Of a stretch of DNA of 64,000 nucleotides, positions 11,313 through 63,414 are shown piece after piece. The notes beneath the pieces are model-generated. The model was given only the letters and a program-made list of their open reading frames with translations, ran no database searches and was not told the origin of the DNA. The stretch's first letter is position 1, and each line of letters begins with the position of its first letter. The position numbers were made by a program, and so were the translations under genes. Origin of the DNA: an uncultured Flavobacteriales bacterium (GTDB lineage Bacteria > Bacteroidota > Bacteroidia > CAIKAF01); assembly GCA_903825395.1 (NCBI GenBank), contig CAIKAF010000010.1, positions 16,700-80,699 on the forward strand, read 5' to 3'.

Positions 11313-11460
11313 GGGCGGCTGCGGGCTTTCACCGGTAGTCCGCGGTGGCCGGGCGGGCTGTTGCCGGGCTGCGGTGGCTCCCAAGGTCGCCTCCTCGCCG
11401 CGGCACAGCTGCCGCCGGCCCCCTTGCGGGCAACCGGGTTCAATCCCTGCCGCGGGCGGC
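11313..11460 (+). repeat. GC-rich dispersed element, copy A (somewhat diverged)
   Basis: gggcggctgcgggctttcaccggtagtccgcggtggcc...ctcccaaggtcgcctcc...gggcaaccgggttcaatccctgccgcgggc. Homologous to the copies at 39831, 44437, 56876, 58428, 62991 and 63271. Confidence 0.8.
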
Positions 11461-11683
11461 GTGGATAGAAAAGGTAAGGGAAAGGGCCTTTGGAGCCCCA
11501 TTTTTAATTCCAACAAAATCAAGTATTTATACTTTAAACTGAAAATCATTTTCAGTATAATAGCCTGTATATCAAAATGTTGTTAAAAAAATCTTGCTTT
11601 TGAATCGAAAATTTGGATATCTTTAAATGCCGCATTGAGTTGGTTGATGCTTAAAGTACAACTACATATATCTAAACCCTTGC

Positions 11684-11812
11684 GATACAGGCCTTGAACT
11701 CTTTGAAGGAGTTCAGGCCTATATCGAGTACTACCACAGTAAAAAGCATCAGGGTACCAGGAGCACTCCTAATGAGGCATATTCTAAATTCAAAAAACTC
11801 TCAGCCGCTTGA
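11684..11812 (+). pseudogene. 3'-terminal remnant of an IS3-family (rve integrase) transposase orfB
   Basis: Translation ...ELFEGVQAYIEYYHSKKHQGTRSTPNEAYSKFKKLSAA* matches the conserved C-terminal tail of rve integrases (yIeyYNxxRxHxxLgyxTPxEay). Upstream homology is lost and a stop sits at 11645, so it is truncated. Confidence 0.5.
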
Positions 11813-11841
11813 TAAAAATCTTAACTTAGCAATGCCAACTT

Positions 11842-12420
11842 TTGGTCCAACAATTAGGGAGTATTACAGTTTTATTTGTATTGGTTTATACCTTGCAAAA
11901 CAAGATGATTGGAGAACTTGGAGAAAAAGGCAGGGAACTAGACCGAATTAAGGAAATTGAAAAAACAGTTAACAATATTGATACTGCTTATTTTAAGTAT
12001 GATGCAGAGAACAAAAAGCATATTCTAAATATGCATTTCTTGTTTCCAAAAGGCAGCTATGATATCTCTAAAATCGTGCCTGACAAACGGGCTGACTTGC
12101 TTAAAGCGGGTAACGTAATTAAACAACTCATTTTAAAATATCCGGAGGAAGAAAACATTAAATATCTAATAGTAGTAGAAGGACAAGCATCAAAAGACAA
12201 TTGGGTGGGTAATGACGACCTGAGTTACCACAGAGCGCAATCGCTAATTAAGTTATGGGAGCAAAACAATATTGGACTTGACAAATTAAAGAACTGTGAA
12301 ATAATTGTTGCAGGAAGTGGCGAGAAAGGTATTCCAAGGACACAACCAGACATTGGTAACGCTAACCAAAGATTTTTAATAACTATCGTTCCTAAAATCG
12401 GCCAAATGAAAAATAAATAG
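11842..12420 (+). CDS. OmpA/MotB-like peptidoglycan-binding protein with N-terminal TM helix and coiled coil, in an AT-rich islet
   Basis: TM segment ITVLFVLVYTL. The C-terminal YLIVVEGQASKDNWVGNDDLSYHRAQSLIKLW...GLDKL...IIVAGSGEKGIPRT fits the OmpA_C pattern (N..LS..RA ... G.GE..P). GC is about 33% against roughly 50% for the window. Confidence 0.55.
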   Translation: MVQQLGSITVLFVLVYTLQNKMIGELGEKGRELDRIKEIEKTVNNIDTAYFKYDAENKKHILNMHFLFPKGSYDISKIVPDKRADLLKAGNVIKQLILKYPEEENIKYLIVVEGQASKDNWVGNDDLSYHRAQSLIKLWEQNNIGLDKLKNCEIIVAGSGEKGIPRTQPDIGNANQRFLITIVPKIGQMKNK

Positions 12421-12431
12421 CCAACACATTT

Positions 12432-12494
12432 GGTGGCACTTTTTCAAAATAGGACAAGCCCAACTCTAAAGCCCAGTTTTGAAAAAGTGCCACC
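12432..12494. terminator. perfect 18-bp inverted repeat (ggtggcactttttcaaaa ... ttttgaaaaagtgccacc) between convergent genes; candidate bidirectional terminator
   Basis: Arms at 12432-12449 and 12477-12494 with a 27-nt loop. It is flanked by A/T runs on both strands and sits between the ompA-like gene (+) and the beta-barrel gene (-). Confidence 0.4.
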
Positions 12495-14598: not shown

Positions 14599-14777
14599 AG
14601 CTGAAAGATAAACAATCCAATAGAATCAAGACAAAATCAAATTGAAAATGACTGAAAAAAGAAAGGAGAAAGGGCTATAAATTGTTTAAACTTCAAACGC
14701 CAAGGTTGGAACATCCGTTGATGCGCCTTGTGCGGTAAGAGGGAAAAACCGAGCAGAGCAACCGGATAAATGGCCAT

Positions 14778-14930
14778 GAGGCGCTGCGGCCCGGATTGCG
14801 GCGGCAGACGCGCCGGGGCAGGGCCTGGGCGGCCGGCTGCGGAGGCGACCAGGGGGAGCCCCACGCAAGCGGCTGCCGCCCAAGCCCTGCCACCAGCGGC
14901 TACAGCCAAAAGCCGGATAAGCCGCCCTAA
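14778..14930 (-). repeat. GC-rich dispersed element, degenerate copy
   Basis: ...ggctgcggaggcgaccagggggagccccacgcaagcggctgccgcc... aligns with the reverse-orientation copies (gcggaggcgaccttgggagccaccgcaagcccgctggg). Confidence 0.5.
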
Positions 14931-14964: not shown

Positions 14965-16359
14965 TTAGCGCATTAGCTCGCCCAGCAGGGCCCGGAATTC
15001 GGCCTGTTTTTGATGCAGCTTGCGGCGAACGTCCGTTTCTTTGATTTTGTATTCTATGAACTTCTGCTGCCGCTGATTGAGTAGGAAAACGGAAGATTCG
15101 CCCAGTTCAAAGCGGCGCTGCTCGGCCCGGAATAAGGCATCCAACTGCCCGGTCATGCGCTGCAATAAGTCCAGCTGCTGCCCCAAGTTCCGCCAATCGT
15201 TGTACAGGGTAAGCAATTGGTTGCGAACGCCCAACCGCTGAAACTGATAGTCCATCTGGGCCTTGGTCAACTTGGCCTCGACTTCCTGACGCTTACCACG
15301 CTCTTTGCGCAGCAGCAAGGGCATATAAAAGTCGAGCCCGATTTTGTAGTTGTTTCTGAACCAAGACGGCTGAGATTCCTGATACAGGGCATTCCAGCGG
15401 GCATTCAGGACGGGAAGCTGATTCCAAACGGCCAGCTTGCGTTCCACTTCAAGTTCGGCCAGCTGGAATTGCTGCCGCAGCAACAGCGGCGAGCTTTGAT
15501 CGGCCTGAGGCAAAATGCTCGACAAGGAATCGACCGAAGGCAAGGCGGGACTGACATCAAACCGGATTTCATCGGGAATGACCGAAGCCGGAACTTCCAT
15601 AGGGGTTTGACGGTCGCGCCACAAAAAGGTGCTGAGCAGCAGCCGCGAGCGCAGCAATTCCTGCCCGGCCACCAGCTGCCCGGTTTGCCGTTCCTGATAC
15701 AAAACAAAGGCATCTAGAGTATCAATGCCGGGGATTTCGCCCAGCTCGAAGGCGGCTTTAATGGAATTGTACTGCCGCTCGGCCACCTGAACCGAGGTGG
15801 CAAACACCTGCACGTTCCGGTAGGCCGCCGACCAATCCCAATAGGCTTTTATGGCTTTGAGCATCAGTTCGTTCCAGGCTTCAATGCGCTCTTGCTCGGC
15901 GGCAAGCAGACCCTGCTGTGCCTGGCGCAACATGGCCCTTCGTTCATCAAAAATGAGTCCGCGCAGCAAGCTGGCTTCTATTCCCACAGCGGGAAGCCCC
16001 ATTTCGGGAATGGTGCGCGAGGGATCGATGAAGGAGCCGCGCATCCAATCAAAGGAGGCGTAACCGGACAGGCCAAACCAGGTCGGCACCTTCAGCTTGG
16101 TTTCCCACCATTGCCAGTAGTTTTTTTGGTCGAAGTCTTTTTGTTCAAAGTTGCTTTGCAACAGGGGGTCGAATCCGCCGCGGGCCGAAAGCAATTGGCC
16201 TTTGGCTTGTTCTGATATTTGATCGATGGCCGCTCCGTACGGATGGTGCTTGGCCACATACTCCAGGTAGGTGTTGAATTGAAGCACCGCCGTCGTGTCT
16301 TGAGCAGAGCAGAACAGGGCCCATGCCCAGCCAATCCATACCAAGCTCTTCAGCCTCAT
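14965..16359 (-). CDS. TolC-like outer-membrane efflux protein
   Basis: Signal peptide. Two repeated coiled-coil/beta halves. The stop overlaps the HlyD gene start (ATGA). 464 aa. Confidence 0.7.
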   Translation of the reverse strand: MRLKSLVWIGWAWALFCSAQDTTAVLQFNTYLEYVAKHHPYGAAIDQISEQAKGQLLSARGGFDPLLQSNFEQKDFDQKNYWQWWETKLKVPTWFGLSGYASFDWMRGSFIDPSRTIPEMGLPAVGIEASLLRGLIFDERRAMLRQAQQGLLAAEQERIEAWNELMLKAIKAYWDWSAAYRNVQVFATSVQVAERQYNSIKAAFELGEIPGIDTLDAFVLYQERQTGQLVAGQELLRSRLLLSTFLWRDRQTPMEVPASVIPDEIRFDVSPALPSVDSLSSILPQADQSSPLLLRQQFQLAELEVERKLAVWNQLPVLNARWNALYQESQPSWFRNNYKIGLDFYMPLLLRKERGKRQEVEAKLTKAQMDYQFQRLGVRNQLLTLYNDWRNLGQQLDLLQRMTGQLDALFRAEQRRFELGESSVFLLNQRQQKFIEYKIKETDVRRKLHQKQAEFRALLGELMR

Positions 16360-21130: not shown

Positions 21131-21202
21131 TTCAATTTTCTTCTTTGTCGTGAAGATACAAAATGAATTTGACTGGGGCCATTTCCGGCTTTCCGTTGTA
21201 GG

Positions 21203-21330
21203 TGAGCGGCGGCGGCGGCAAACGGGCTGGGCGGTGCGTGGGCTTCCTTTGGTCGCCTCCGCCCGCCGGCCCGTTTAAGCCGCCCCCATCCGCTCCCCTG
21301 CCACTGCAATCCGGGGCCCGGCCCCCTCAA
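21203..21330 (+). repeat. GC-rich dispersed element, degenerate copy in a divergent promoter region
   Basis: ...gggctgggcggtgcgtgggcttcctttggtcgcctccgcccgccggccc...ccactgcaatccggggcc is weakly alignable to the family consensus. Confidence 0.35.
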
Positions 21331-27354: not shown

Positions 27355-27509
27355 GACTTGAAGTTTTTTTTGCCGCGAAGGACACCATGTCGGCACAAAG
27401 TGCACAGAGGGAGTGGTGTTATACCGAGAGTGTGCAGGAGTTCCGAGGCTCCTTTGCGAACATTGCGGCTTCCTTTGCGGCCATTGCGGTAAAAAATGGC
27501 GGTTAGGCC
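27355..27509 (-). repeat. dispersed repeat family 1, reverse orientation
   Basis: The reverse complement reads ttttttaccgcaatggccgcaaaggaagccgcaatgttcgcaaaggagcc...ccctctgtgcactttgtgccgacat, matching the 37783-37920 copy. Confidence 0.7.
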
Positions 27510-27602
27510 TTGATGGGTTTTTCACGGAAAAGAACACTTAAGCGACAACATTCAAAAATCCAAACCAGAGAAAGGCCTGTTTCCCCTCATATTTTATATT
27601 TG

Positions 27603-27914: not shown

Positions 27915-28004
27915 GGGTGTGTTGTGTCGCTAGAGGGCTCGTGGCTCCTTTGCGAACATTGCGGCTTCCTTTGCGGCCTTTGTGTTAAAAATTGGCGGTT
28001 AGGC
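27915..28004 (-). repeat. dispersed repeat family 1, partial copy (reverse orientation)
   Basis: gctcgtggctcctttgcgaacattgcggcttcctttgcggcc...ggcggttaggcc is near-identical to 27440-27509. Confidence 0.6.
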
Positions 28005-28259
28005 CTATTAATTGCTTTTGATGGAGTCGAGCTGTTAAAACCCGAAAAGCGCTATAAATGGATGTAAACACTCCTACCTCCCCGATTCCCCCCGCCGGGT
28101 AAGATTTCATAGATTTTTGGAAGACCCTAAAAAACACTGATTTACAGATACTTAACCGATTCGCTCCGGCAAAGCCCGTTGCGTTTCAGTTCTTTTGTAA
28201 TAACTTGTCCTTTTAAAACCTTAAACCGCGGCGAAACCCCGCCAAATTTGTACAAAACT

Positions 28260-39713: not shown

Positions 39714-39830
39714 GCTTCAAAGGTAGGGGTTGTAGGGGAGGTTTGAAAGGGGAGCACGTATTGGATTTGGAATTTTAGGTTGTCCCCTCGTTTCCAATAC
39801 ATTCTATTACGAATCCCCCCCAAGTCTCAA

Positions 39831-44436: not shown

Positions 44437-44586
44437 TCGGGCGGCAGCCGGGCTTTCAGGGGTAGTCTGCCCTTGCCGAAAGGCGGGCCCAGCGGGCTTG
44501 CGGGGGCTCCTAAAGTCGCCTCCGCGCCGCGCGGGCCCGGCTTCGGCAACGGGCAGAGCTACCCTCTTCAATCCCTGCCGCGGGCC
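44437..44586 (+). repeat. GC-rich dispersed element, copy C
   Basis: gggcggcagccgggctttcaggggtagtc...gcgggcccagcgggcttgcgggggctcctaaagtcgcctccgcgccgcgcgggcccggc...caatccctgccgcgggcc. Overlaps the last ~6 codons of menD. Confidence 0.8.
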
Positions 44587-46220
44587 ACCTCATTCCATGA
44601 CGCCGCTCGCCGTGCTTGATAGGTGTTCCATGCCGCCGTATTTTCCCGCGCATCGGTTTGCAGTTCAATGACTCCCGTGCGAATTCCATCCCAAATTTTT
44701 AGGCAATCTGCCAACTCCTGAACGCATCCACAACAGGCATACCGAAGCCCAAACCGCTGGGCAAACCAGGCAAAGGTGTCGGTTCGGGCAGCCACAAAAT
44801 GCCGTTCTACATCAGCAGATGCCGCGGGAGGCCCCGGCAGATTTCTAAATATTTGACCCCCAAAATTATTGAGGATCACTACCAATACATTGGTTGGGAA
44901 AGGCTGGCTCAGCAGGGCATTGTTGTCGTAGTTCATGGCCAAATCGCCAATCAAAACCACATGTTGGCGCAGGGGGTCGGCCAAAGCCTGTCCCACTGCA
45001 GTAGATAAGGTGCCGTCAATTCCACTCAAACCTCTGTTGCACCACAGTTCAATTCCCTCAGGCAGCATAGTTTGAAGCGCATCTACATAGCGTACACTCA
45101 TGCTGTTTGCCACATGCATTACCGAGTCGGCCTGCAGTTGCTTCAATATGAAGGCAACCGCGGAAACATCCGACCACGTTTCATCCCATTCTTCAATGTC
45201 GGCCATTGGCAAAACCATGGGCTCAAGGGGTTGGGGTAAGGAGTTGAAAAACGCCGCCACCGAACCCATCCAAAACGGTTGCTGTGGTAAAAATCGATAT
45301 CCCGGCTGTTCAAACAAATCCACATGCAAGGTCTTCTGACCGGGGAACCGAGAAAAGAAGGACTCCCATCGCCGTGGAACCATAGAACCTCCCACTGAAA
45401 CAAGCACGTGGGGAAGACCTTCCTCAGTTGGACGGCTCCACAACCAAAATGGGAAATCGCTGCGCGACGAAAACGACCACAAGTGCGAGGACACATCCCC
45501 CCAAAACGCCCCACCTTTGGCAATAAATTCTCGGATAAAAGGCTGCAGTTCCAGCGCAGATTTTCGATCCATATGGCCGGCCAAAATGGCTATTCTGGGT
45601 CGAGCCGGCACATTCAACTCGGCCAAAGAACGAATGCCTTGGCCAAGATCAATCGCTGGCCCCTCTTGAGTTAAGACCAAAGGTTCAGAGCCCGGATGCA
45701 CCGTACTTCCATCGTCTGCCTCATACAAGGGCTCTTCAAACCGAATGTTCAGGTGTACCGGCCCGGGTTTCCCTTGGCACAACACATCCCAGGTTTGATC
45801 CGGATGGCCGGGATCTAGATTTGAAACCAGAGTCCGACCTTTAATAAATCCCTGAAAAAAAGATTCCTGCCATAGGGTTTGCCCCTCATGTGCAGGCACG
45901 TACCGCGAAGGCCTGTCGGCAGTAATGACCACCAATCCAACTCCCTGATGATAGGCCTCGGCTATTGCTGGGCCATAATTAATTCCAGCCGAACCGCTGC
46001 TGCAAATTAAGCCTACCGGGCGCTGCCATTGCCGGGCAAGCCCAAGGGCAATAAACCCCGCTGAACGCTCATCGGGATGAACAACCATCCGAACACCGGG
46101 CAAGGATTCTAAGGCCAGAATTAAAGGCGCAGAACGAGAACCTGGCGAAACCACAAAATCGCGCAACCCCTTTTCAAAAAGAGCCTGAATCCAAAACCGG
46201 GCCAGTGCTGCTGCGTTCAT
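44568..46220 (-). CDS. menD: 2-succinyl-5-enolpyruvyl-6-hydroxy-3-cyclohexene-1-carboxylate synthase (ThDP enzyme, menaquinone pathway)
   Basis: N-terminus FVVSPGSRSAPL...HPDERSAGFIALG...GPAIAEAY typical of MenD. ThDP-binding GDLA...N motif. 550 aa. Confidence 0.8.
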   Translation of the reverse strand: MNAAALARFWIQALFEKGLRDFVVSPGSRSAPLILALESLPGVRMVVHPDERSAGFIALGLARQWQRPVGLICSSGSAGINYGPAIAEAYHQGVGLVVITADRPSRYVPAHEGQTLWQESFFQGFIKGRTLVSNLDPGHPDQTWDVLCQGKPGPVHLNIRFEEPLYEADDGSTVHPGSEPLVLTQEGPAIDLGQGIRSLAELNVPARPRIAILAGHMDRKSALELQPFIREFIAKGGAFWGDVSSHLWSFSSRSDFPFWLWSRPTEEGLPHVLVSVGGSMVPRRWESFFSRFPGQKTLHVDLFEQPGYRFLPQQPFWMGSVAAFFNSLPQPLEPMVLPMADIEEWDETWSDVSAVAFILKQLQADSVMHVANSMSVRYVDALQTMLPEGIELWCNRGLSGIDGTLSTAVGQALADPLRQHVVLIGDLAMNYDNNALLSQPFPTNVLVVILNNFGGQIFRNLPGPPAASADVERHFVAARTDTFAWFAQRFGLRYACCGCVQELADCLKIWDGIRTGVIELQTDARENTAAWNTYQARRAASWNEVARGRD

Positions 46221-49098: not shown

Positions 49099-50382
49099 AT
49101 GACACGTCTTTTGCTTTCTCTTGGCCTGATTTTATTCTCCAAGGCCTTTTCCCAGAACATACATTTGGGCAGCAATACGCCCGCAGACCCTTCCTCTGTT
49201 GTAGAAATTTCCTCTACAACCGGAGGCTTTTTAGTGCCTCGAATGACCACCGTCCAGCGCAATGCCATTCAAAATCCCGCCACGGCACTTCAAATTTTCA
49301 ATACCGATACCGATTGCCTGGAAATGTATTATTCCGGTGGAGGCTGGCGTAGCATTCATTGCGATTGCCAAGCCTTTCCCAACGCCGTTTTTGCCGTTCC
49401 CAACGGCTACATAAATCAGGCCGCATCATTTAGCGCCCCTCCCAATATGACCTACAGCTGGAGTTTTCAAAACGGCACGCCTTCCAGCTCTGTATTGCAA
49501 AACCCACAACCCAGCTGGTCAAGCCCCGGAACCTACGCTGTTTCACTGTCCTTGACCGACAGCGCCGGCTGCTCCTCTTCGCATACCGATTCCATTACGG
49601 TTATCAACTGTGCCCCAGCCACCGGCGGAACCATTACCACCTCTGGCCCCTGGACCATTCATACTTTTACCGGCAATGGAACGTTTAACCCCGGCTGCAG
49701 CCGCACCATAGAATACTTGATTGTGGCTGGTGGCGGTGGCGGCGGAGATGGGAATGCCGGTGGCGGTGGGGGCGGAGCCGGTGGTTTTGTCGAAGGCTCT
49801 GTTCAGCTTTCTCCAGGAAATTACTCCATCGTAGTAGGAAGCGGAGGCGCCGGAAGCACGGTTCAAGATGGTGTTGGTCAATCTGGTAACAATTCCAGCT
49901 TTAACAACATTATAGCCTTTGGCGGCGGCCGCGGTGGTGGATATGTAAGCCCCAACGGCGCCAATGGAGGAAGTGGCGGTGGGGGCAGTGGCCCATCTGG
50001 AAGCGGACAAGGCGGGTCTTCAACCCAAACCTCTCCACAAGGCGGAAATGGGTATGGATTTTCGGGTGCGCCCTATGCCGGCGGCGACGGCGGTGGCGGC
50101 GGTGGAGCCGGTGGGGCAGCCAATAGCAGAAATGGAGGGCCCGGCCGCAACAGTTCTATATCTGGCAACACGGTAACCTATGCCGGAGGTGGCGGCGGAG
50201 CCCGCTACCTAGGTCAAGCGGGCTTAGGTGGTTCCGGAGGTGGCGGAAATGGAGGATATTACCCCGGAAATGGAAACGGACAAAATGGCCAAGCCAACAC
50301 CGGGGGCGGAGGCGGAGGTTCCGGCGATGGCCCCATCGGGGGCAATGGCGGCTCTGGTATTGTTATTCTTCGGTACCAATAA
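49099..50382 (+). CDS. secreted protein of paralogous family: shared N-terminal module + PKD-like domain + long glycine-rich C-terminal domain
   Basis: Signal peptide. PADPSSVVEISSTTGGFLVPRMTTVQRNAIQNPATALQIFNTDTDCLE, then TYSWSF...GTYAVSL, then ~230 aa of G-runs ending GSGIVILRY. Confidence 0.6.
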   Translation: MTRLLLSLGLILFSKAFSQNIHLGSNTPADPSSVVEISSTTGGFLVPRMTTVQRNAIQNPATALQIFNTDTDCLEMYYSGGGWRSIHCDCQAFPNAVFAVPNGYINQAASFSAPPNMTYSWSFQNGTPSSSVLQNPQPSWSSPGTYAVSLSLTDSAGCSSSHTDSITVINCAPATGGTITTSGPWTIHTFTGNGTFNPGCSRTIEYLIVAGGGGGGDGNAGGGGGGAGGFVEGSVQLSPGNYSIVVGSGGAGSTVQDGVGQSGNNSSFNNIIAFGGGRGGGYVSPNGANGGSGGGGSGPSGSGQGGSSTQTSPQGGNGYGFSGAPYAGGDGGGGGGAGGAANSRNGGPGRNSSISGNTVTYAGGGGGARYLGQAGLGGSGGGGNGGYYPGNGNGQNGQANTGGGGGGSGDGPIGGNGGSGIVILRYQ

Positions 50383-50418
50383 ATTCCCAAGCTCTAAAAC
50401 CAACCAAACCTCTCTCCC

Positions 50419-51990
50419 ATGAAACAATTGCTCGGCCTTATCTTGCTGATTTTCTCGGCCAATCTTAGCGCCCAAGGGGTAAAAATCAACCATGGAACAC
50501 CAAGTCCGGCAGACAGTTCGGCCATTTTGGAATTGGAATCGACCCAAAAAGGATTTCTGCTGCCTAGGCTCACTACAGCACAGCGAAATGCCATCGCTTC
50601 TCCTGCAGTAGGATTGCAAATTTACAACACTTCAACCCGCTGCGTAGAAACCTTTTTTCCTGTAGGTTGGAGGCCAACAGGATGTCAATGTACCGCGTTC
50701 CCCAATGCTGGATTCACCCTTCAACCCGCTTTCCCATCGGCGGGCTTCCCAATCCAGTTTATGGCCAACGATTCCTCCAATGCCCTTTCCTGGACTTTCC
50801 AAAACGGAAGCCCCGCTAACGATACCGTCGGAGCCCCCATTGTAATATTTTCCAACCCAGATACCGTTTCGGTAGTGCTTCGTGCTACCGATTCTCAAGG
50901 CTGCCAAGATTCAACAACTCAAACCATTGTTATTCAAAATTGCCCCCTGAATACCCCAAACCCGGCCTTTACCGCTTCACCCGCAAGTCCGGGAACAAAT
51001 CAAGCGGTAACGTTTAACCCAAGTAGCCTAGTGGGGGTGTCTCACAGTTGGTCTTTTGCCAGTGGTAACCCAGGGAGTTCTTCGGCTACAAATCCAACCT
51101 CCACCTGGTCAAGCGCAGGAACTTATTCTGTCATTCATCAAGTTACCGATTCTAGCACCGGCTGCGTTCAAGCCGATACCTTGGCTCTGGTTGTAAGCTC
51201 CTGCATTACAGGAGGCAATGCCAATTTTATTTTCACGGGTAACCTTCAGCTTTGGACAGCTCCGGCTGGGGTATGTACGATTCAAGTAGAAGGCTGGGGC
51301 GCCCGCGGAGGAGATGGCGGTGGCTATGGGGCCTACGTGGTAGGAACCTTTTCCGTTACCCCTGGGCAGCAATATAAAATTTTAGTTGGCCGGAAAGGAA
51401 ACAATGGCAACGGCGGTGGCGGCGGTGGCGGGACATGGTTTACCGATGCCAACAACAATCCATTGTTGGTAGCTGGGGGCGGAGGCGGTAAAGGCTATGG
51501 CAATTCCAACCTGCCTTCCTCAGTAAATGGCGGCGCTTGCGGAGGCTCAGGCTGCTCGGGAACCCAAGGCTCATGCGGAAGCCCTGGCACCGGCGGAAGC
51601 AACGGCGCCGGGGGACTTGGGGCCACCTGCACTCAAAATGGAACCGGAGGCGGTGGCGGCGCCGGAACACTAACCGGCGGGGGAACAGCAAACGGCTGTT
51701 CCTATTCCCAAAGCACAGGCGGAGCCGCATTTGTGAATGGGGGTGCCGGGGGCTTAGGGGGCTGTGGAGTGGCAGGAGGATTCGGCGGCGGTGGTGGTGG
51801 CGGTTGCAACGGCGGTGGAGGTGGCGGCGGAGGAGGATATTCTGGCGGCGGCGGCGGAAATCCCTGGTGCAACAACGGAGGAATTGGAGGCCATGGCGGC
51901 GGCGGTGGCTGCTACAACACCGGAACCAACACATCTTTAACGGTGGGCGGCAACCTCAACGACGACGGCAGGTTGTACATCACCTGGTAA
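50419..51990 (+). CDS. secreted protein of the same paralogous family (N-terminal module + PKD-like repeats + glycine-rich C-terminal domain)
   Basis: PSPADSSAILELESTQKGFLLPRLTTAQRNAIASPAVGLQIYNTSTRCVE. Two PKD-like blocks (ALSWTFQNGSP..., SHSWSFASGNP...). A Gly-rich tail ending GRLYITW. Confidence 0.6.
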   Translation: MKQLLGLILLIFSANLSAQGVKINHGTPSPADSSAILELESTQKGFLLPRLTTAQRNAIASPAVGLQIYNTSTRCVETFFPVGWRPTGCQCTAFPNAGFTLQPAFPSAGFPIQFMANDSSNALSWTFQNGSPANDTVGAPIVIFSNPDTVSVVLRATDSQGCQDSTTQTIVIQNCPLNTPNPAFTASPASPGTNQAVTFNPSSLVGVSHSWSFASGNPGSSSATNPTSTWSSAGTYSVIHQVTDSSTGCVQADTLALVVSSCITGGNANFIFTGNLQLWTAPAGVCTIQVEGWGARGGDGGGYGAYVVGTFSVTPGQQYKILVGRKGNNGNGGGGGGGTWFTDANNNPLLVAGGGGGKGYGNSNLPSSVNGGACGGSGCSGTQGSCGSPGTGGSNGAGGLGATCTQNGTGGGGGAGTLTGGGTANGCSYSQSTGGAAFVNGGAGGLGGCGVAGGFGGGGGGGCNGGGGGGGGGYSGGGGGNPWCNNGGIGGHGGGGGCYNTGTNTSLTVGGNLNDDGRLYITW

Positions 51991-56751: not shown

Positions 56752-56875
56752 AGGGTTGGCAGGTTAGTGAGGTCGATTTCCATCTAGGTCGCAAAATATT
56801 GATTTTTCCTTTCTTATCCCCCTCCATTTTTTAGGGTGAATCATTGATTTGGATAGGTTCTTTTCTGTTTTTTCT

Positions 56876-57025
56876 TGGGCGGCTGCGGGCTTTCGTGGGT
56901 AGTCCGCGGTGGGCGGAAGTCTGGCCCAGCGGGCTTGCGGGGGCTCCCAAGGTCGCCTCCGCGCCACGCGGGCCAGGCTCCGCCCACCTTGCGGGCAACC
57001 CTACTCAATCCCTGCCGCAGGGCCC
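56876..57025 (+). repeat. GC-rich dispersed element, copy D
   Basis: gggcggctgcgggctttcgtgggtagtccgcggtgggcggaagtctggcccagcgggcttgcgggggctcccaaggtcgcctccgcgccacgcgggccaggctcc...caatccctgccgcagggcc. Confidence 0.8.
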
Positions 57026-57114
57026 CCTCCTACCTAGGCTCTCCATATTGATTTTTCATCCACAACAGCGAATTTCAGCTTAGCCTACTCAGCCAACCCG
57101 CCTATGGCCTATCT

Positions 57115-57360
57115 TTGGGTGTGATTTTCATTGGCAACCTTCCTTATGCCTTCACTGAACAGGAGCTTAAAGACCTGTTTAGTCCGTTTGGCGAGGCCCA
57201 ATCGGTTCAGTTGATTCGGGACCGAATTTCGGGCCGAAGCCGCGGATTTGGGTTTGTAGACCTGAGCAATTCACAGCAAGAAATTGCTGCCATCGAGGCC
57301 CTGCAGGGCCTCGAATTGGAAGGAAGAACCATTCGAATAAGCAAGAAGCACCATGAATAG
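57115..57360 (+). CDS. RRM-type RNA-binding protein
   Basis: RNP-2 (IFIGNLPY) and RNP-1 (RGFGFVDL) motifs. 81 aa. Confidence 0.7.
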   Translation: MGVIFIGNLPYAFTEQELKDLFSPFGEAQSVQLIRDRISGRSRGFGFVDLSNSQQEIAAIEALQGLELEGRTIRISKKHHE

Positions 57361-58381
57361 AGAACAACGCATTGAGGCCCTGCGCCTAGCCATGAAAACC
57401 CGGGTGGTCGTTTTAGACGGTGCCATGGGAACCATGATTCAACGGCATAATCTGCAAGAAGAAGATTACCGCGGACAGCGCTTTGCCGATTGGCCCCACC
57501 CCGTAAAAGGCAACAATGAATTGCTTAGCCTTACTCGGCCAGATGTTATTCAGGGTATCCACCAAGCGTATTTTGAGGCCGGCGCTGATATTGCTGAAAC
57601 CAATACGTTCGGAGCCAACCGAATTTCTCAGGCCGACTACCACATGGAAGCCCTGGCCGAAGAAATGAATCTGGCTTCGGTAGCCTGTGCTCGAGCCGCT
57701 GCCGATGCCTGCATGGAAAAAGAACCCGGACGGTTGTGCTGGGTAGCCGGAGCGATTGGACCCACCAATAAAACCGCGTCCTTGTCACCCGACGTCAACG
57801 ATCCCGGATTCCGAGCCATTGACTTCGACGAACTGGTAGAGGCATACCTAGAACAGGCTCGAGCCCTTTGGTCTGCCGGAGCCGACGCCCTTCTGGTTGA
57901 AACCATTTTCGACACCTTAAACGCCAAGGCCGCTCTGTACGCCATTCAACAGCTGCGCGAGGAAACCGGAGCCGCCATTCCCATTATGGTGAGTGGAACC
58001 ATCACCGACGCCTCGGGAAGAACCCTTAGCGGACAAACCGTAGAGGCCTTTATGATTTCATTGCTGCATGCCGACCTTCTGAGCATCGGCCTGAACTGCG
58101 CCCTAGGCGCCAAAGACATGGCCCCCTACATTCAGGAATTGGCAAAAAAATCTCCGGTCATGGTAACGGCCTACCCCAATGCCGGCCTTCCCAATGCTTT
58201 TGGAGCCTACGATCAAACTCCCGATGAAATGGCCGATTTGGTGGCTGAATTTATGAACAACCGCTGGATTAATTTGATTGGTGGCTGCTGTGGCAGTACC
58301 CCCGACCACATTGCCGCTATTGCCCGTGTGGCAAAACAAGCTCAGCCTAGACCTCTACCCGAGTTAAATAAAGAGTCGTAA
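57353..58381 (+). CDS. homocysteine S-methyltransferase domain protein (stand-alone Hcy-binding module of cobalamin-dependent methionine synthase)
   Basis: [11 protein letters not shown], the [10 protein letters not shown] barrel motifs, and the Zn-ligand Cys pair [10 protein letters not shown]. 342 aa, matching the MetH N-terminal module missing from 46335-49013. Confidence 0.8.
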
Positions 58382-58427
58382 CCCCCAATCTGCAGTTTTT
58401 CCCTACTCAGTATTAGGCATGATGTGG

Positions 58428-58573
58428 CCCGCGGCAGGGATTGAACCGGGTAGCACGCCAACGGGGCGGAGCCTGGCCCGCGTGGTGCGGAGGCGACTTT
58501 AGGAGCCACCGCAAGCCCGCTGGGCCAGCCTTCCGCCCTGTGCGGACTACCGGTGAAAGCCCGCAGCCGCCCC
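58428..58573 (-). repeat. GC-rich dispersed element, copy E (reverse orientation)
   Basis: cccgcggcagggattgaaccgggtagc...ggcgcggaggcgactttaggagccaccgcaagcccgctgggccagcc...ggtgaaagcccgcagccgccccc. Confidence 0.8.
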
Positions 58574-58592
58574 CATAAAAAACCAAATCCAT

Positions 58593-60431
58593 TTAGCCCT
58601 GAACCCGCCCCGTTTCTCCCTGGGCGAATTTCAAAAATGCCTGATTTACAAAGGCGTAGCCCCCCGGCGTAGGGTAATTTCCGCTGAAGTACCAATCGCC
58701 CGTATGCTCAGGACAGGCCGAGTGCAGCCCCTGCAACGACTGAAACACCAGCTGCACTTGAGCCTGTATGCCCGCCGGACTAAGCTGTTCTGCCATTTTA
58801 TCGGCCAACTGCGCATCGCTGAACCGGGCATACAATTCTGCCACCCAGTTTTTTTCTCCGTCTGTTCTCTGCTCTCTAGCGCGTAAGATATTGGCCTCGG
58901 TTTGCTTTAATTCCGAGTTCAAACCGGCTTCGGCGAGCAAGGCCAGCAGCGCCCGAAAGGCCGCCAAGTCTTCCAGCCGAGCCATATCAATGCCATAGCA
59001 ATCGGGGTACTTGATGATGGGTGCCGAGCTGACTACCACGATGCGCCGCGGTTGCAAGCGATCCAGCATTTTCAGGATGCTTTCGCGCAGGGTGGTGCCC
59101 CGCACAATGCTGTCGTCCACCACCACCAGGGTGTCTTGGCCAGGCCGCACAGAGCCGTAGGTGATGTCGTACACGTGCTGCACCAGGTCGTCCCGGTGCC
59201 GGTCGTCGGTAATGAAGGTGCGCAATTTAGCGTCCTTCACCGCCACCTTTTCTACCCGCACCTTGCGGCGCAGCAAGGCTAAAATCTCTTCTTCCGTGGC
59301 CGGACAATGTTCCATGATCTGCCGGGCGGTTCGCGCCTCTTGCTCGGCCTCCAAGCCCTTTACCAATCCATAAAACGCCAGTTCTGCCGTGTTGGGAATA
59401 AAAGAAAATACAGCCTCTTCAAGCTGTCCATTCAGGGCCTGCAACACCGGCTCGGCCAGCTGCTCGCCCAAGGCTTTGCGTTCGGTATATACTGAGGCGT
59501 CGGTGCCCCGAGAAAAATAAATGCGCTCAAACGAACAGGCTAGGGTGGGCTGAGCCTCGAGCACCTGCACCGTTTCCGCCTGCCCCTGAGCGGAAATCAA
59601 CAGCGCACTACCGGGCTTTAGCTCTTGAATGTCTTGCACATCGGCATGAAACACAGTTTGCAGGACCGGCCGCTCAGAAGCCACCGCAATCAGTTCTTCG
59701 TTTTCGTACCAAAAGCAAGGGCGAATGCCCCGCGGGTCTCGAATGGCAAAGGCATGTCCATCGCCTGTAAAACCGCCAATGGCATAGCCTCCGTCTAGTT
59801 TTTGAAAGGTGTTGCGGAGCACCTGCCCCAAATCGGGCGGCCCCACCGGACGGCCTTGATTTTCATGTTGCCCAAGGGCGCGGTCTAAAAAATGCCCCAT
59901 GCGCTCCATCACCGTTACGGTATCGGCCGTTTGCGTAGGGTGTTGACCTAGTTCTACCAACTGCTGAAACAACTCGGCCGTATTGGTCAAATTGAAATTC
60001 CCGGCAAGGCAGAGCATTTTTTCTTTCCATGGACTGTCCCGTAAAAATGGGTGGCATGAATCAATGCCGTTCGCTCCATACGTGCCATAACGCACATGGC
60101 CCAAATAAATATCGCCTTCAAATCGGTTGGCCTGAGGTTCGCGCTGCCGCTGCTCCTCAATTTGCCGAATGACATGCAAAATGGGCTGCGCCTGCACCGA
60201 GCGCTCCCGAAGAATGGGGGGCTTGCCGGGCAAGGTATCAACCGACAGGCAGGCCAAACCGGCACCGTCTTGCCCGCGGTTGTGCATTTTTTCCAGCAAC
60301 AGGTACATGTGGCGCAAGGCCTGTCCATAGGGCAAAGAAGAGGGCTTTCCGGCTTGCCGCTTCAACCGGATTAAGGCCAATCCACATTCGTGTTTTAATG
60401 GGTCGCTCATGCATGGGGTTTCCAGGCACAA
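58593..60431 (-). CDS. purF: amidophosphoribosyltransferase (class-II glutamine amidotransferase + PRTase)
   Basis: N-terminal nucleophile context HECGLALIRL, Ntn-GATase domain, PRPP-binding VVVDDSIVRGTT. 612 aa long form. The true start is possibly the MSDPLKHEC Met at 60410. Confidence 0.8.
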   Translation of the reverse strand: MCLETPCMSDPLKHECGLALIRLKRQAGKPSSLPYGQALRHMYLLLEKMHNRGQDGAGLACLSVDTLPGKPPILRERSVQAQPILHVIRQIEEQRQREPQANRFEGDIYLGHVRYGTYGANGIDSCHPFLRDSPWKEKMLCLAGNFNLTNTAELFQQLVELGQHPTQTADTVTVMERMGHFLDRALGQHENQGRPVGPPDLGQVLRNTFQKLDGGYAIGGFTGDGHAFAIRDPRGIRPCFWYENEELIAVASERPVLQTVFHADVQDIQELKPGSALLISAQGQAETVQVLEAQPTLACSFERIYFSRGTDASVYTERKALGEQLAEPVLQALNGQLEEAVFSFIPNTAELAFYGLVKGLEAEQEARTARQIMEHCPATEEEILALLRRKVRVEKVAVKDAKLRTFITDDRHRDDLVQHVYDITYGSVRPGQDTLVVVDDSIVRGTTLRESILKMLDRLQPRRIVVVSSAPIIKYPDCYGIDMARLEDLAAFRALLALLAEAGLNSELKQTEANILRAREQRTDGEKNWVAELYARFSDAQLADKMAEQLSPAGIQAQVQLVFQSLQGLHSACPEHTGDWYFSGNYPTPGGYAFVNQAFLKFAQGETGRVQG

Positions 60432-60484
60432 AGGTAAAAACCCATGTAAGATTTAAGGCGGTTTTGGGAAATAAATTGTTGGGG

Positions 60485-60720
60485 CAGACCTACGTGTCTG
60501 CCCCAAACGAGTCGAGGCCGCCAGGCCAGACCTACGTGTCTGCCCCAAACGAGTCGGGGCCGTCAGGGCACACCTAGGTGTCTGCCCCAAACGAGTCGAG
60601 GCCGCCAGGCCAGACCTACGTGTCTGCCCCAAACATGTCGAGGCCGCCGGGGCACACCTACGTGTCTGCCCCAAACCAAACGGGTGCCGTAGGCATACAC
60701 GGATTGGAGGGGCATATAAG
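60485..60720. repeat. tandem repeat, ~4.5 copies of a 40-44-bp unit with palindromic core cagacctacgtgtctg
   Basis: Units at 60485, 60527, 60571, 60611 and 60655 (partial), e.g. cagacctacgtgtctgccccaaacgagtcgaggccgccaggc. Lies between the fabD 3' end and the purF 5' end. Confidence 0.85.
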
Positions 60721-60743
60721 GCAGGGGGCATATACGGTGGACG

Positions 60744-60767
60744 GGGCACACACGAAGGTGTGCCCCT
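60744..60767 (-). terminator. GC-rich hairpin ggggcacacacgaaggtgtgcccc overlapping the fabD stop codon; possible terminator or structural element
   Basis: Perfect 9-bp stem with a 5-nt loop. There is no clean U-tract downstream on the minus strand. Confidence 0.3.
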
Positions 60768-61641
60768 AGCCGGAAACCAAATCGGCCTCGGGGGCCACTT
60801 TGCGGATTAATCCCTGCAACACATTCCCCGGTCCGGCTTCGACAAAACGATGAATGCCATCGTTCCACATGGCCTGCACCGATTGGGTCCAGCGCACCGG
60901 ACCGGTGAGTTGTGCAATCAAATTGCTGCGAATTTCCTCCGGATCCGTTACGGCACAGGCCACCACATTCTGATAAACAGGACATCGGGGTGCCGAGAGT
61001 TCAGTACGGCGAATGGCTGCTTCCAGGCGCTGCCGCGCGGGTTCCATCAATGGCGAATGGAAGGCTCCGCCCACTTTTAGGGGCAAGGCCCTTTTGGCTC
61101 CGGCCTCTTTCAAGCGAATGCAGGCCTCTTCAATGCCTGCATGGCTGCCCGATATCACCAGCTGACCCGGACAATTGTAGTTGGCCGGCACCACCACCAG
61201 GGTCGAAATCCCTGCACAGACGGATTCTACCGATGCGTCATCCAGGCCGAGCACGGCGGCCATGGTTCCTGGCTCCGACTCGCACGCTTCCTGCATGGCC
61301 AAAGCACGTTCCTGAACCAAGGCCAGTCCGGCCTCAAAGGGAAATACTCCTGCCACTACCAGGGCCGAGAACTCGCCTAGAGAATGGCCCGCCACCGCAT
61401 CGGGACTAAATGATTGCTGCATTGCCACCGCCACCGAATGCACAAAAATGGCCGGTTGGGCATAGCGGGTTTCGGTTAAATCTTCGGCCGAGCCATCAAA
61501 CATAATGTCAGTAAGGCGAAAACCCAATATATCATTGGCCTGTTCAAACACGGCTTTTACTCGGGCGTCGCGCTCGTACAAATCTTTCCCCATTCCGGGA
61601 GTTTGGGCCCCTTGACCGGGAAATACCAAGGCTGTTTTCAT
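60766..61641 (-). CDS. fabD: malonyl-CoA:ACP transacylase
   Basis: ALVFPGQGAQTPGMGKDLY and the GHSLGEFSALVVAG active-site Ser motif. 291 aa. Confidence 0.85.
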   Translation of the reverse strand: MKTALVFPGQGAQTPGMGKDLYERDARVKAVFEQANDILGFRLTDIMFDGSAEDLTETRYAQPAIFVHSVAVAMQQSFSPDAVAGHSLGEFSALVVAGVFPFEAGLALVQERALAMQEACESEPGTMAAVLGLDDASVESVCAGISTLVVVPANYNCPGQLVISGSHAGIEEACIRLKEAGAKRALPLKVGGAFHSPLMEPARQRLEAAIRRTELSAPRCPVYQNVVACAVTDPEEIRSNLIAQLTGPVRWTQSVQAMWNDGIHRFVEAGPGNVLQGLIRKVAPEADLVSG

Positions 61642-61754
61642 GGTAAATTTTACATTAAGATTAGCGAAGATAACCCATTTGCTGCATCACACCCAAATGG
61701 ACCAATGTGGGGTTCTATGTAAAAAGGTTGTAGTTTCGTACAACACCGAAGCCC

Positions 61755-62966
61755 ATGGCAAGAACAGAACCGGCTAAGCATGCGTCCGATACCAAAGCTC
61801 CCTTGGCGCACTTTCTCATTTTGGGCGAGCCCAAGGCCTTGCGATCGGGCATGTTGGCCTTGGTGGAGGCGCTTAATCGTCAGGGCAAGCGGGTGGTATT
61901 GGCCAATCCAAATGTGGTTGAATTTCACGCCGCCATCAACGGAGGAGGAATGCTCCTCGGCGCCTCAGAACCGTATTCCCTACGCCCAAAAAAAACCTGC
62001 ATTATTCCTTGTTTGGAAAGCCTGGATGAGCAAGGATGGCAGCTGTGGATGCGCATGGAACAAGCCAAGCTGGCCTCGCTCAACGCCTCGGCTGCAGTTC
62101 GCCTTTGTTTGGATCGACCTAGCTTAAGTGCCGTTTTGCAGCAGCAGGGAATTGGTCATTCTGAGGCTCCGCTCAGCGGAGGAATTGCTCGGTTTTGGTT
62201 GTTTGCCCAGCGTCAAGGCTTGGTGCGCCGCGACCTTCTGACCTTGCATTCCCGGTGGCCCGAGGACTGGACCGACAATCAGGTCCAAGAGGCTCAGCGT
62301 CTGGCTGTTGAGGCCGCCAAGCGGTCGGGGTGCCTGTGGGCCGAAGTGCTTGTATCGCATGATCATAGCCGCTTTGCGGTATTGCATATTCAGCCTCAGC
62401 CCGGCATTTTTCCGGCCGAAGCGCCGGGGTTGGCCGGCAATCTGGCCGAGCTGTTGACGCAGCGTTTGCATGCGCCTTTGCCCAAAACCTGCATTGGCTT
62501 TCGCGAGCGCATTTTCATTGCGGGGGTAGGCGAAGTCGTAGCCAAATTTGATACGGGAAATGGCGCCACGGCTTGTTCCTTGCATGCCGACCACATCGAA
62601 GAAGTAGATGGATACTTGGAGTGGAGTTTGGGTTCGCAGCAGCATCGGCACCCGGTGGTGGGGCATTCCTTTGCCGAGGTGGGGCATTCGGTGCAGCGTC
62701 GACCGGTAATTTTACTTACCGTGCAGTTCAATGGAATGGAGTACCGCAAGGTGCGTTTTGCTTTGGTAAACCGCACCAAGAAAAGCACTCCGGTGCTGGC
62801 GAACCGGCAGTTTATGCGCAGGGCGGGGCTGTTGGTCGATCCCGCCGAAGAATTTATGGTTTCATGGCGGCCGGAGGGCTACTGTCCTAAAGATGCCAAG
62901 GGCCAGGCGCGTGCGGGCATTTTGCCGGTGCAGGCCATAGATTTGGGCGAGGGCCGCGGGCGTTAA
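61755..62966 (+). CDS. RimK-like ATP-grasp-related domain fused to a retropepsin-like (PF05618 'putative ATP-dependent zinc protease'/RimB-like) C-terminal domain
   Basis: The N-terminus (FLILGEPKALRSGMLALVEALNRQGKRVVLANP) and AQRLAVEAAKRSGCLWAEVLVSHDHSRFAVLHIQPQPG resemble RimK ends, but the ATP-binding middle is not evident. The C-terminal VVAKFDTGNGATACSL...RPVILLTVQFNG...ANRQFMRRAGLLVDP resembles the retropepsin-like fold. Confidence 0.35.
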   Translation: MARTEPAKHASDTKAPLAHFLILGEPKALRSGMLALVEALNRQGKRVVLANPNVVEFHAAINGGGMLLGASEPYSLRPKKTCIIPCLESLDEQGWQLWMRMEQAKLASLNASAAVRLCLDRPSLSAVLQQQGIGHSEAPLSGGIARFWLFAQRQGLVRRDLLTLHSRWPEDWTDNQVQEAQRLAVEAAKRSGCLWAEVLVSHDHSRFAVLHIQPQPGIFPAEAPGLAGNLAELLTQRLHAPLPKTCIGFRERIFIAGVGEVVAKFDTGNGATACSLHADHIEEVDGYLEWSLGSQQHRHPVVGHSFAEVGHSVQRRPVILLTVQFNGMEYRKVRFALVNRTKKSTPVLANRQFMRRAGLLVDPAEEFMVSWRPEGYCPKDAKGQARAGILPVQAIDLGEGRGR

Positions 62967-62990
62967 GTTGAGGAATCTGGTTTTTTTAAT

Positions 62991-63137
62991 GGGGGCGGCT
63001 ACGGGCTTTCACCGGTAGTCCGCGGTGGCCGGAAGGCTGGCCCAGCGGGCTTGCGTGGGCTCCCAAGGTCGCCTCCGCGCCGCGCGGGCCAGGCTCCGGC
63101 CCCTGGCGGGCTACCCGGTTCAATCCCTGCCGCTGGC
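62991..63137 (+). repeat. GC-rich dispersed element, copy F
   Basis: gggggcggctacgggctttcaccggtagtccgcggtggccggaaggctggcccagcgggcttgcgtgggctcccaaggtcgcctccgcgccgcgcgggccaggctccggcccctggcgggctacccggttcaatccctgccgctggcc. Confidence 0.8.
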
Positions 63138-63270
63138 CAAGAAAATATTAAAGCAATACTAGAGCAGATGGCTCAACAACGTTTCCACCTCAAATATAAT
63201 TTCAAAGGCTGAAATTCCAAACTTTAGGTTGATTTTTTTGTTTCCTGGCCTTTAAAATGGATTCGGGTCG

Positions 63271-63414
63271 CCCGCGGCAGGGATTGAGCCGGGTTGCCCG
63301 CAAGGGGGGCCTGGCGCTGCCCGCGTGGCGCGGAGGCGACCTTGGGAGCCACCGCAAGCCCGCTGGGCAGCCCAGTGCCCACCGCGGACAACCGGTGAAA
63401 GCCCGCAGCCGCCC
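63271..63414 (-). repeat. GC-rich dispersed element, copy G (reverse orientation; forms an inverted pair with copy F across a 133-bp AT-rich spacer)
   Basis: cccgcggcagggattgagccgggttgcccgcaagggggg...gcggaggcgaccttgggagccaccgcaagcccgctgggcagccc...ggtgaaagcccgcagccgccc. Confidence 0.8.

Follow-up and report, generated by a model that had tools for sequence, protein, structure and literature searches.

Dispersed palindromic repeats offer the nearest described parallels to the element reported here. ERIC/IRU sequences are imperfect palindromes of about 130-170 nt that occupy transcribed intergenic regions in either orientation, and effects on mRNA stability have been proposed for them; to our knowledge, no dedicated transposase is known for ERIC/IRU or for related palindromic repeats. 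REPINs, attributed to Bertels and Rainey in 2011, are reportedly doublets of REP (repetitive extragenic palindromic) sequences that form hairpins and are associated with REP-associated tyrosine transposases (RAYTs). The element considered here, termed a rod after its single long hairpin, recurs in a 64,000-nt stretch of DNA (the window) from an uncultured Flavobacteriales bacterium (GenBank assembly GCA_903825395.1, contig CAIKAF010000010.1, positions 16,700 to 80,699), where a first-pass annotation had noticed a dispersed GC-rich family and argued for a selected helix. The rods are a repeat family without prior catalogue entry, present in several uncultured Bacteroidota. The reading that we favour, at a probability of roughly 55%, is that they constitute a selfish repeat, dispersed and imperfectly palindromic, of the REP/REPIN, ERIC, or palindromic miniature inverted-repeat transposable element (MITE) kind, non-autonomous and spread in trans, and not a new RNA gene, although they may also act as an RNA element.

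The repeated unit, its fold and its distribution

A covariance model (R1), built from the seven good copies and scanned over the whole window with filters off, recovers exactly nine copies, seven at 112-160 bits and two divergent ones at 40-41 bits, beyond which the scan gives only reverse-strand echoes and noise. The dispersed family is therefore real, and all nine locations originally proposed hold (40-160 bits with R1). A repeat scan of the window recovers the copies as direct and inverted families, and a 20-nt piece of the consensus matches five times in the window against 0.01 matches expected by chance. Five copies lie on the plus strand and four on the minus strand. Their GC content (0.72-0.77, against about 0.48-0.60 and mostly about 0.51 in the window) bears out the earlier rough count of more than 70%. 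The unit length of about 150 bp given at that time is replaced by about 142 nt, from GGGCGGC to GCCGC. These limits come from comparing copies that lie at unrelated loci but whose rods share at least 93% identity (269 pairs), in which identity falls to 35% over the 20 nt 5' of the rod (background 34%) and to 38% over the 12 nt 3' of it (background 36%). Since both flanks are at background level, the shared unit is exactly GGGCGGC...GCCGC.

RNAalifold folds the seven good window copies into one single rod of 54 pairs. When 103 copies are aligned to the model, standard pairs fill 95.0% of the pair cells, compared with 35-54% in controls in which the 3' partner is slid by 1-3 columns; changes on both sides are seen in 43 of the 54 pairs, and none of 500 shuffles matches the observed values. 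Because the 103-copy alignment was fitted to the model, the test was repeated with MAFFT and RNAalifold on 92 copies, which returned the same rod with compensatory changes in 26 of 42 pairs. The first-pass annotation had based its helix on a single compensatory change, CTGGCCC with GGGCCAG versus CGGGCCC with GGGCCCG, and had suggested an alignment-folding check; that change is confirmed at alignment columns 49-103 as one among many, and the covariation extends far beyond one pair. The rod structure is exceptionally well supported.

Three modules of the rod are nearly invariant, namely the terminal helix GCGGC/GCCGC, an internal loop with CGGGCUUUC opposite UCAAUCCC, and an apical GGCUCC..GUCGCCUCC. 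Positions conserved at 95% or more form corresponding blocks at the 5' base (GGGCGGC with CGGGCTTTC), at the apex (GGC-TCC...GTCGCCTCC) and at the 3' base (TCAATCCC.GCCGC), and between the modules about 30 bp of helix are free to drift in sequence while pairing is retained. A GTAG/CTAC duplex lies inside the rod in 56 of the 103 copies, as GTAG/CTAC in 35 and flipped in 21, and is missing from the rest. Two local alternatives were rejected: the bases of a possible CACCG/CGGTG hairpin in the 5' arm covary with the 3' arm instead, and those of a tRNA-like GGTTCAATCCC in the consensus, which might be read as a T-arm, are paired to the opposite 5' arm of the rod and covary with it (GGTTCAATCC, columns 22-24 with 153-155). 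Either strand folds into one long hairpin, far better than shuffles.

Outside the window, a pattern scan of GTDB species genomes found at least 71 stretches from at least nine Bacteroidota metagenome-assembled genomes (MAGs), in which R1 detects about 97 forward copies. Carriers among the matches listed are casp15-mb.160, K_DeepCast_35m_m2_130, ErkenSummer bin-6618, a 'Bacteroides sp.' bin (near the Erken one, with 97.5% identity in the single flank compared), three Lentimicrobiaceae, a Sulfidibacterium and a Bacteroidales bin. A metagenome scan gave at least 120 stretches, and R1 found 106 copies in the 80 of these loci that were searched, bringing MAGs and metagenomes together to more than 200; loci from MAGs or metagenome assemblies that were compared with the window carry L-labels below. 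The window itself aligns at about 97-99% identity with contigs from the MAG 'Bacteroidetes bacterium casp15-mb.160' (JAQCBQ01), and its region also occurs in several European Nucleotide Archive metagenome assemblies. The previously stated density of about one copy per 7 kb applies to the window, which is denser than other loci; there, about one further copy per 20 kb is found besides the seed copy, which would put a whole genome at roughly a hundred copies or more.

Searches of existing catalogues agree with the earlier statement that the rods resemble no named non-coding RNA. Rfam 15 at gathering thresholds has no match in the whole window and one tRNA only in five outgroup loci, ARAGORN reports no tRNA or transfer-messenger RNA (tmRNA) gene, the plasmid and viral collections hold no match to the rods, and literature searches by keyword and sequence string returned nothing on the rod sequence. 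The companion statement, that no REP, bacterial interspersed mosaic element (BIME) or MITE family is matched, stands as far as sequence goes; in behaviour the rods are the same kind of repeat, and therefore amount to a new family and not to a new category.

Copies, flanks and gene context

All nine window copies are intergenic, as the description "intergenic or gene-terminal" had anticipated, and apart from one close pair they are spaced 1.5-18 kb apart among large housekeeping genes. Copy A (11313-11462, plus; 111.7 bits) comprises a rod at 11313-11453 with a 9-nt GC-rich tail and lies in the divergent gap between the start of an Lhr helicase gene (11228, minus) and an open reading frame (ORF) at 11842 (plus). 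Copy B (39830-39981, minus; 145.4 bits; rod 39839-39981) is located 116 nt upstream of lpxK (38730-39713, minus; Pfam), with a run of nine T immediately 5' of it. Copy C (44439-44590, plus; 149.8 bits; rod 44439-44581) starts 11 nt past the stop of a co-oriented TonB-dependent receptor gene, and its 3' end (44568-44581) holds the stop and last few codons of a convergent thiamine pyrophosphate (TPP)-enzyme ORF (44568-46220, minus), so that the repeat supplied or reshaped the C-terminus of that protein. Copy E (58422-58572, minus; 159.5 bits; rod 58431-58572), in a convergent gap, starts 20 nt past the stop of a co-oriented GATase-domain gene (58593-60431, minus) and is identical in L001-L004 and L025.

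Copies F and G form the close pair. Copy F (62993-63142, plus; 152 bits; rod 62993-63133), with a predicted RNA fold of -95.9 kcal/mol (z = -3.6), starts 26 nt past the stop of a co-oriented 403-aa gene and is preceded by a T-rich, C-poor flank (TGGTTTTTTTAATGG, 62978-62992, plus) that is not inherited with the rod. Copy G (63265-63414, minus; 138.1 bits; rod 63274-63414) starts 46 nt past the stop of a co-oriented polysaccharide-deacetylase gene (63461 onward, minus), and the two copies stand tail to tail, with their 3' ends facing each other over 122 nt. In E-value mode over 56800-63500, Rfam matches the copies only with microRNA models across this pair (MIR7533 at 51.8 bits, threshold 230; MIR841 at 30.8 bits, threshold 200), which are artefacts of the inverted arrangement, and its other two matches lie away from the copies.

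Two further copies had been called degenerate relics, a description that needs correction. The one at 14777-14927 (minus; 40.4 bits; rod 14786-14927, GGGCGGCTTATCCGGCTTTT...GCAATCCGGGCCGC) is full-length, beginning with GGGCGGC and finishing with GCCGC, and its 5' end lies 37 nt past the stop of a co-oriented OEP gene (14965-16359). The other, at 21174-21328 (plus; 41.2 bits), is partly degenerate at its 5' end and lies in the divergent gap between a peptidase C1 gene (minus) and an adh_short gene (plus). Both are members of a divergent subfamily with further copies at other loci, the former being alignable with L075:7370-7520.

Copy D (56877-57027, plus; 156 bits; rod 56877-57018) lies between the start of a CCP_MauG gene (minus) and an RRM_1 gene (57115-57360, plus). 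Its end is 88 nt upstream of the latter, which encodes a small RNA-binding protein and is itself just upstream of a homocysteine S-methyltransferase gene. In L079-L081 (73-74% amino acid identity), a divergent rod (about 41-44 bits) in the opposite orientation lies 42 nt upstream of the RRM_1 gene, and in L077 the site upstream of this gene is empty.

The two flanks of the rods differ markedly. Four or more consecutive T occur within 12 nt on the 5' side of 59% of copies and on the 3' side of 2%; T reaches 55-70% at positions -6 to -2 with no fixed word, the run ending 0-4 nt from the unit, and C is depleted over about 20 nt, a tract in which G is present. On the 3' side, the first 10-12 nt follow a loose RRGCS..YCAW pattern. 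The frequency of the T-run is equal across all gene contexts and 3 of 98 5' T-runs come after a hairpin, indicating that the run is not the U-tract of a host terminator. Target-site duplication is absent, since direct repeats between the flanks of a copy (longest common stretch 3.56) are no longer than in cross-copy controls (3.50, p = 0.32). Several other roles for the flanks were considered and rejected: extension of the rod by flank pairing (-9.1 kcal/mol for own-flank duplexes versus -9.4 kcal/mol for cross-copy controls), an intrinsic terminator on either strand (a 3' T-run in 2% only, and none of copies D-G called in a terminator scan) and a Bacteroidetes promoter (no -7 box at a fixed distance in the flank profile, with A at -6 in only 8%).

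Gene context was counted from a crude ORF call over 187 deduplicated copies, with 47 copies in convergent gaps, 34 in tandem gaps in sense orientation, 30 in tandem gaps in antisense orientation and 23 in divergent gaps. Convergent gaps thus outnumber divergent ones (47 versus 23), and the difference between sense and antisense is not significant (p = 0.71). Co-oriented copies usually begin 10-45 nt after the stop codon, the 5' end lying at most 45 nt past it in 76% of tandem and 62% of convergent cases. The seven distinct adjacent pairs of copies, including F and G, are all tail-to-tail, which means that every copy points the same way as the gene preceding it.

Several other features of the window deserve mention. 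Its gene content indicates a Bacteroidota host, since it encodes LpxK, several proteins with sorting tails of the type IX secretion system (T9SS), and TonB-dependent receptors that carry a CarboxypepD_reg domain. Two adjacent genes (49099-51990) encode glycine-rich repeat proteins (GGxGGxGG runs; PTL_trimer/PKD matches), paralogues of which form the largest protein cluster near rods at other loci. A sub-threshold Guanidine-II (mini-ykkC) match at 59183-59241 (minus; 27.3 bits versus a gathering score of 32) falls inside the GATase-domain ORF and is probably due to chance. At 60482-60691, four to five tandem 42-nt units each carry a palindrome (GGGCAGACCTACGTGTCTGCCC), and one of them is terminator-like in the terminator scan. 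A second dispersed repeat of about 155 nt, unrelated to the rods (…TTTACCACAGAGGCCGCCAAGGGAGCCGCAAAGTTTCACAAAGG…GCGCCCTTTGCGGTAAAAA), occurs at 7478-7873, 8533-8755, 27366-27511, 27940-28006 and 37764-37942 in both orientations, partly in tandem; one unit folds modestly above shuffles (z = -1.9), and a piece of this repeat also adjoins a rod in L054.

Spread, persistence and rival explanations

Comparison of related genomes reveals both persistence and turnover of individual copies. Copies D-G are common to strains of the window's species, and copies D and E are absent in L077/L078, a relative with 86% amino acid identity in the neighbouring methyltransferase. This relative (L077) has copies elsewhere, and carries a canonical-type copy at the site of the divergent 14777 copy. 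One K_DeepCast copy is replaced in the Erken bin (L009) by a REP-like array, and another Erken locus (L030) holds a deleted remnant, in which the first 17 nt of the rod are followed by a REP-like palindrome. A search for true empty sites among 202 loci yielded only this remnant and one very diverged site (L142). The search in relatives proposed in the first-pass annotation thus has copies in at least nine MAGs and presence differing between related species to show; it gave no clean filled/empty pair of close strains, and movement is consequently inferred from distribution and not directly seen.

The search for a partner enzyme covered about 1.5 Mb around more than 200 copies, in which 1,792 ORFs were clustered; the scope is the same for all results of this search given below. 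The clusters near copies consist of housekeeping or T9SS families and of artefactual ORFs that read through rods. A scan for HUH plus Y motifs found one Y1_Tnp gene, in L063, confirmed by Pfam, and no such gene (RAYT) was flanked by rods; nor was there a reverse transcriptase, TnpA or TnpB near the copies, or a split, enlarged or autonomous parent version of the rod. Canonical GTAG-tagged REPs coexist with rods in the carrier genomes. One example is a tandem array in the window (4411-4700; period of about 55 nt), whose units contain a canonical GTAG-tagged REP (CCGTAGAGCCAAGGCACGCCTTGGCTCC) and which implies a RAYT-type system somewhere in the genome. In addition, some rods (L013, L037, L044, L056, L057 and L108, and window 14750-14775) have a TGGCC(G/A)TTTATC motif 10-15 nt downstream, followed by a 'double-foot' GTAG...CTAC REP palindrome, a composite that recalls the mosaic organisation of BIMEs. 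Bacteroidetes-specific RAYT subclasses have been described with 'atypical secondary structures' or 'double-foot' REPs flanking them, including subclass 2.6, whose flanking atypical structures recur at other sites of the genome (Quentin et al. 2018, PMC6006769). Together with the GTAG/CTAC duplex inside the rod and the coexisting REPs, these RAYTs make a RAYT-like enzyme the leading candidate for mobilising the rods; it is a lead, not a result.

If the rods are indeed a non-autonomous repeat, an enzyme encoded elsewhere would spread the copies, recognising a folded single strand, most simply DNA, through the conserved modules and cutting where the hairpin has its foot; the leading candidate would be a hairpin-specific recombinase, of the HUH/Y1 type or another, although none was found in the area searched. 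Insertion would adjoin T-rich sequence, and insertions would persist mainly just past stop codons and in convergent gaps, where harm is presumably least. Once transcribed, a GC-rich rod of 50 pairs would provide a very stable 3' structure, which could shield the ends of mRNAs or set their limits, and this may be why copies are retained for long at some loci.

Several observations sit awkwardly with this favoured reading. In addition to the lack of a clean filled/empty pair between close strains, no recurrent transposase or other mobilising enzyme accompanies the copies, and the single Y1_Tnp gene, in L063 at a distance of 3.9 kb from a rod, has 26-nt REPs of its own on both sides, unrelated to the rods. 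IS200/IS605 elements are lagging-strand-specific, whereas the rods show no strand bias in the window (five plus, four minus). Identical rods in unrelated flanks could have arisen by gene conversion. Neutral insertion alone does not account for the tight placement past co-oriented stop codons, which 76% of sense tandem copies show, or for the tail-to-tail arrangement of all seven pairs. At one locus (YitT-DUF6125), the copy is kept in three Lentimicrobiaceae/Sulfidibacterium MAGs at 81-90% identity, compared with 45-62% in the flanks, and from these alignments looks like the object of purifying selection in place. Finally, each of three wobble positions is G-U on the plus strand in 55-83 of the 103 copies and plus-strand RNA is 6-12 kcal/mol more stable than that of the other strand, which hint at one preferred strand. 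The one-sided T-run, the stop-codon placement, the tail-to-tail pairs, the fixed wobbles and the locus shared across genera are not explained by the repeat reading, and they leave room for an RNA-level role and an unusual insertion mechanism.

A tentative alternative, overlapping with the favoured reading, is a cis-acting RNA module of 3' untranslated or intergenic regions. Being very stable, the rod would label the 3' ends of mRNAs or shield them, or else it would bind an RNA-binding protein by way of the conserved loop and apical modules. The host would retain the rod, multicopy status would date from past mobility, and the difference from a simple repeat would lie in what maintains the fold. 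Proximity of the 5' end to a co-oriented stop (at most 45 nt in 76% of sense tandem and 62% of convergent copies), tail-to-tail orientation in all seven pairs, the three fixed G-U wobbles with the more stable plus-strand RNA, the invariant internal and apical loops, and the one locus that different genera share with far higher conservation than its flanks all favour it; yet 30 of the 64 tandem-gap copies are antisense to both neighbours, 23 copies occupy divergent, promoter-side gaps, no U-tract follows the rod and no -7 box stands at a fixed distance, and copies are lost or replaced between related species. Even at the YitT-DUF6125 locus, orthologous copies gain uncompensated mismatches, and these outnumber compensated differences. 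The pairing itself speaks in the same direction. The plus strand of the 103 copies has 240 G-U cells against 53 A-C cells, 200 of the former being at the three fixed positions; outside these, the numbers are 40 and 53. Since G-U is thus no commoner than A-C there, the variable helices are Watson-Crick only, which fits constraint on DNA or on both strands, and the fixed wobbles might just as well be non-pairs that are conserved on the opposite strand. This balance, together with equal sense and antisense numbers in tandem gaps, weighs against a strand-specific RNA gene, and an RNA module as the main explanation seems to us possible but on the whole unlikely. A combined account is more doubtful still: an undescribed single-hairpin mobile element with both ends set by the foot of a 50-pair hairpin, moved next to oligo-T by an enzyme specific for folded strands, preferentially past stops and co-oriented, whose transcript then serves the host as a protein-bound 3'-end RNA module. 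It would account for the fixed wobbles, the invariant loops and the cross-genera locus.

In another rival reading, the rods are folded-strand recombination sites analogous to attC or other hairpin targets, at which a tyrosine or serine recombinase would exchange genes or islands. They are imperfect palindromes of attC-like length just after co-oriented ORFs, with conserved structure and variable sequence; synteny with the orthologue of copy A in L062 (MAG JAQCBQ01) breaks at the 3' end of the copy, and L005 diverges from the window (63134 onward) exactly after the GCCGC of copy F, where a strain-specific block of ORFs begins. This block (L005:2610-11109) comprises about 8 kb of ORFs without Pfam or PHROG match and then an IS4-like DDE transposase gene, and is either a strain-specific island next to the rod or a chimeric assembly. 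Downstream of the L039 copy are integrase gene fragments, namely two degenerate C-terminal tyrosine recombinase fragments (L039:150-500, minus; …GHSSSKTTEIYTHVS…SPFDDL); together with more than 100 nt of 3' flank, this rod also has a duplicate on a second contig (L032) from that MAG, and the duplicated stretch has its boundary exactly at the 5' end of the rod. However, the rods end in GGGCGGC/GCCGC and not in RYYYAAC/GTTRRRY, they lie about 7-20 kb from one another among large housekeeping genes and not in cassette arrays, no recurrent integrase accompanies them, and the breakpoints could equally stem from homologous recombination between copies or from metagenome misassembly at repeats; contigs do end inside copies in L025, L036 and L043. 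We regard exchange at such sites as improbable. A SINE (short interspersed nuclear element)-like retroelement, whose reverse-strand RNA would carry an A-rich tail (the plus-strand T-run) and be copied by a reverse transcriptase in trans, is highly improbable. It would explain a homopolymer tract of variable length and purity at one precise terminus only, not inherited with the rod, but target-site duplications are lacking, the C-poor flank of about 20 nt holds many G (that is, C in the supposed tail), the fixed wobbles favour the opposite strand as the folded one, and no reverse transcriptase lies near the copies; moreover, we know of no such retroposition mechanism established in bacteria. 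Equally hard to credit are independent small RNA genes or derivatives of tRNA, tmRNA, SRP or Y RNA, which the consensus might suggest by its T-loop-like GGTTCAATCC and by the GC-rich terminal helix that its 5' and 3' ends form. The rods do resemble SRP, 6S and Y RNAs, which are rod-shaped with conserved modules. Against this origin, ARAGORN and Rfam at gathering thresholds are negative, the 'T-arm' bases are paired to the 5' arm and covary with it, and signatures of a promoter or a terminator are absent; at an estimated copy number of a hundred or more per genome, in either orientation, the rods behave as a repeat and not as a gene family.

Significance and relation to described elements

Confirmation of the repeat interpretation would establish a well-defined, deeply covarying repeat family in a phylum where such elements are barely catalogued. 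It would also improve the annotation of Bacteroidota MAGs, in which GC-rich rods create spurious ORFs and break assemblies, provide a marker of strain-level rearrangements, and turn the question of mobility into a search for an enzyme whose substrate is a 142-nt hairpin bearing three invariant modules. Sharp termini, a T-run on one side only and stop-proximal, tail-to-tail placement constrain the insertion mechanism in ways that fall outside the textbook classes. If the RNA form matters, the rods would represent a widespread 3'-end module in bacteria without Hfq and ProQ.

Unlike intrinsic terminators, the rods have no U-tract after the hairpin, and compared with SINE-like retroposons, which combine a 3' A-tail with a duplication, they have a one-sided homopolymer but no duplication, the tract being C-poor and G-containing. 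Classical MITEs carry terminal inverted repeats (TIRs) and a target-site duplication, whereas the rod ends are complementary (GCGGC/GCCGC) without duplication, and no parent insertion sequence (IS) with the same ends lies within the area searched. Integron attC sites, such as the Vibrio repeats (VCRs) of 123-126 nt, are similar-length imperfect palindromes 3' of co-oriented ORFs whose structure is likewise conserved more than their sequence in the middle; the rods differ in having no RYYYAAC/GTTRRRY cores, cassette arrays or integron integrase and in their large housekeeping neighbours. The miniatures of IS200/IS605 elements (PATEs) share with the rods the lack of classical TIRs and target-site duplication, a sequence preference on the 5' side only and, as far as may be judged, a folded single strand as the recognised substrate; PATEs have two subterminal hairpins and a fixed tetra- or pentanucleotide target, and the rods one full-length hairpin and a loose T-run.

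The palindromic, intergenic nature and either-way orientation of the rods are shared with ERIC/IRU, YPAL, Correia/NEMIS, RUP and BOX repeats. Correia and RUP elements have TIRs and a TA duplication, in contrast to the rods, and ERIC/IRU, elements of Enterobacteria, belong to another phylum and have no sequence relation to the rods, which add a one-sided T-run and much stronger covariation evidence. REPs and BIMEs are built on a 20-40-nt palindrome with GTAG or CGTC at the foot; the GTAG of the rod is internal, flips, and is absent in about 45% of copies. In size, the rod (about 142 nt) exceeds both REPs (20-40 nt) and REPINs (about 70-110 nt), and its arms, unlike those of REPINs, are not small hairpins themselves; about 25 nt of invariant sequence lie outside its GTAG. 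The shared ground with REPs and REPINs is nevertheless broad: both they and the rods are non-autonomous, GC-rich, intergenic, high in copy number and free of target-site duplication, with long vertical persistence, and in REPINs as in rods two inverted arms form a long hairpin whose stem is kept by compensatory change.

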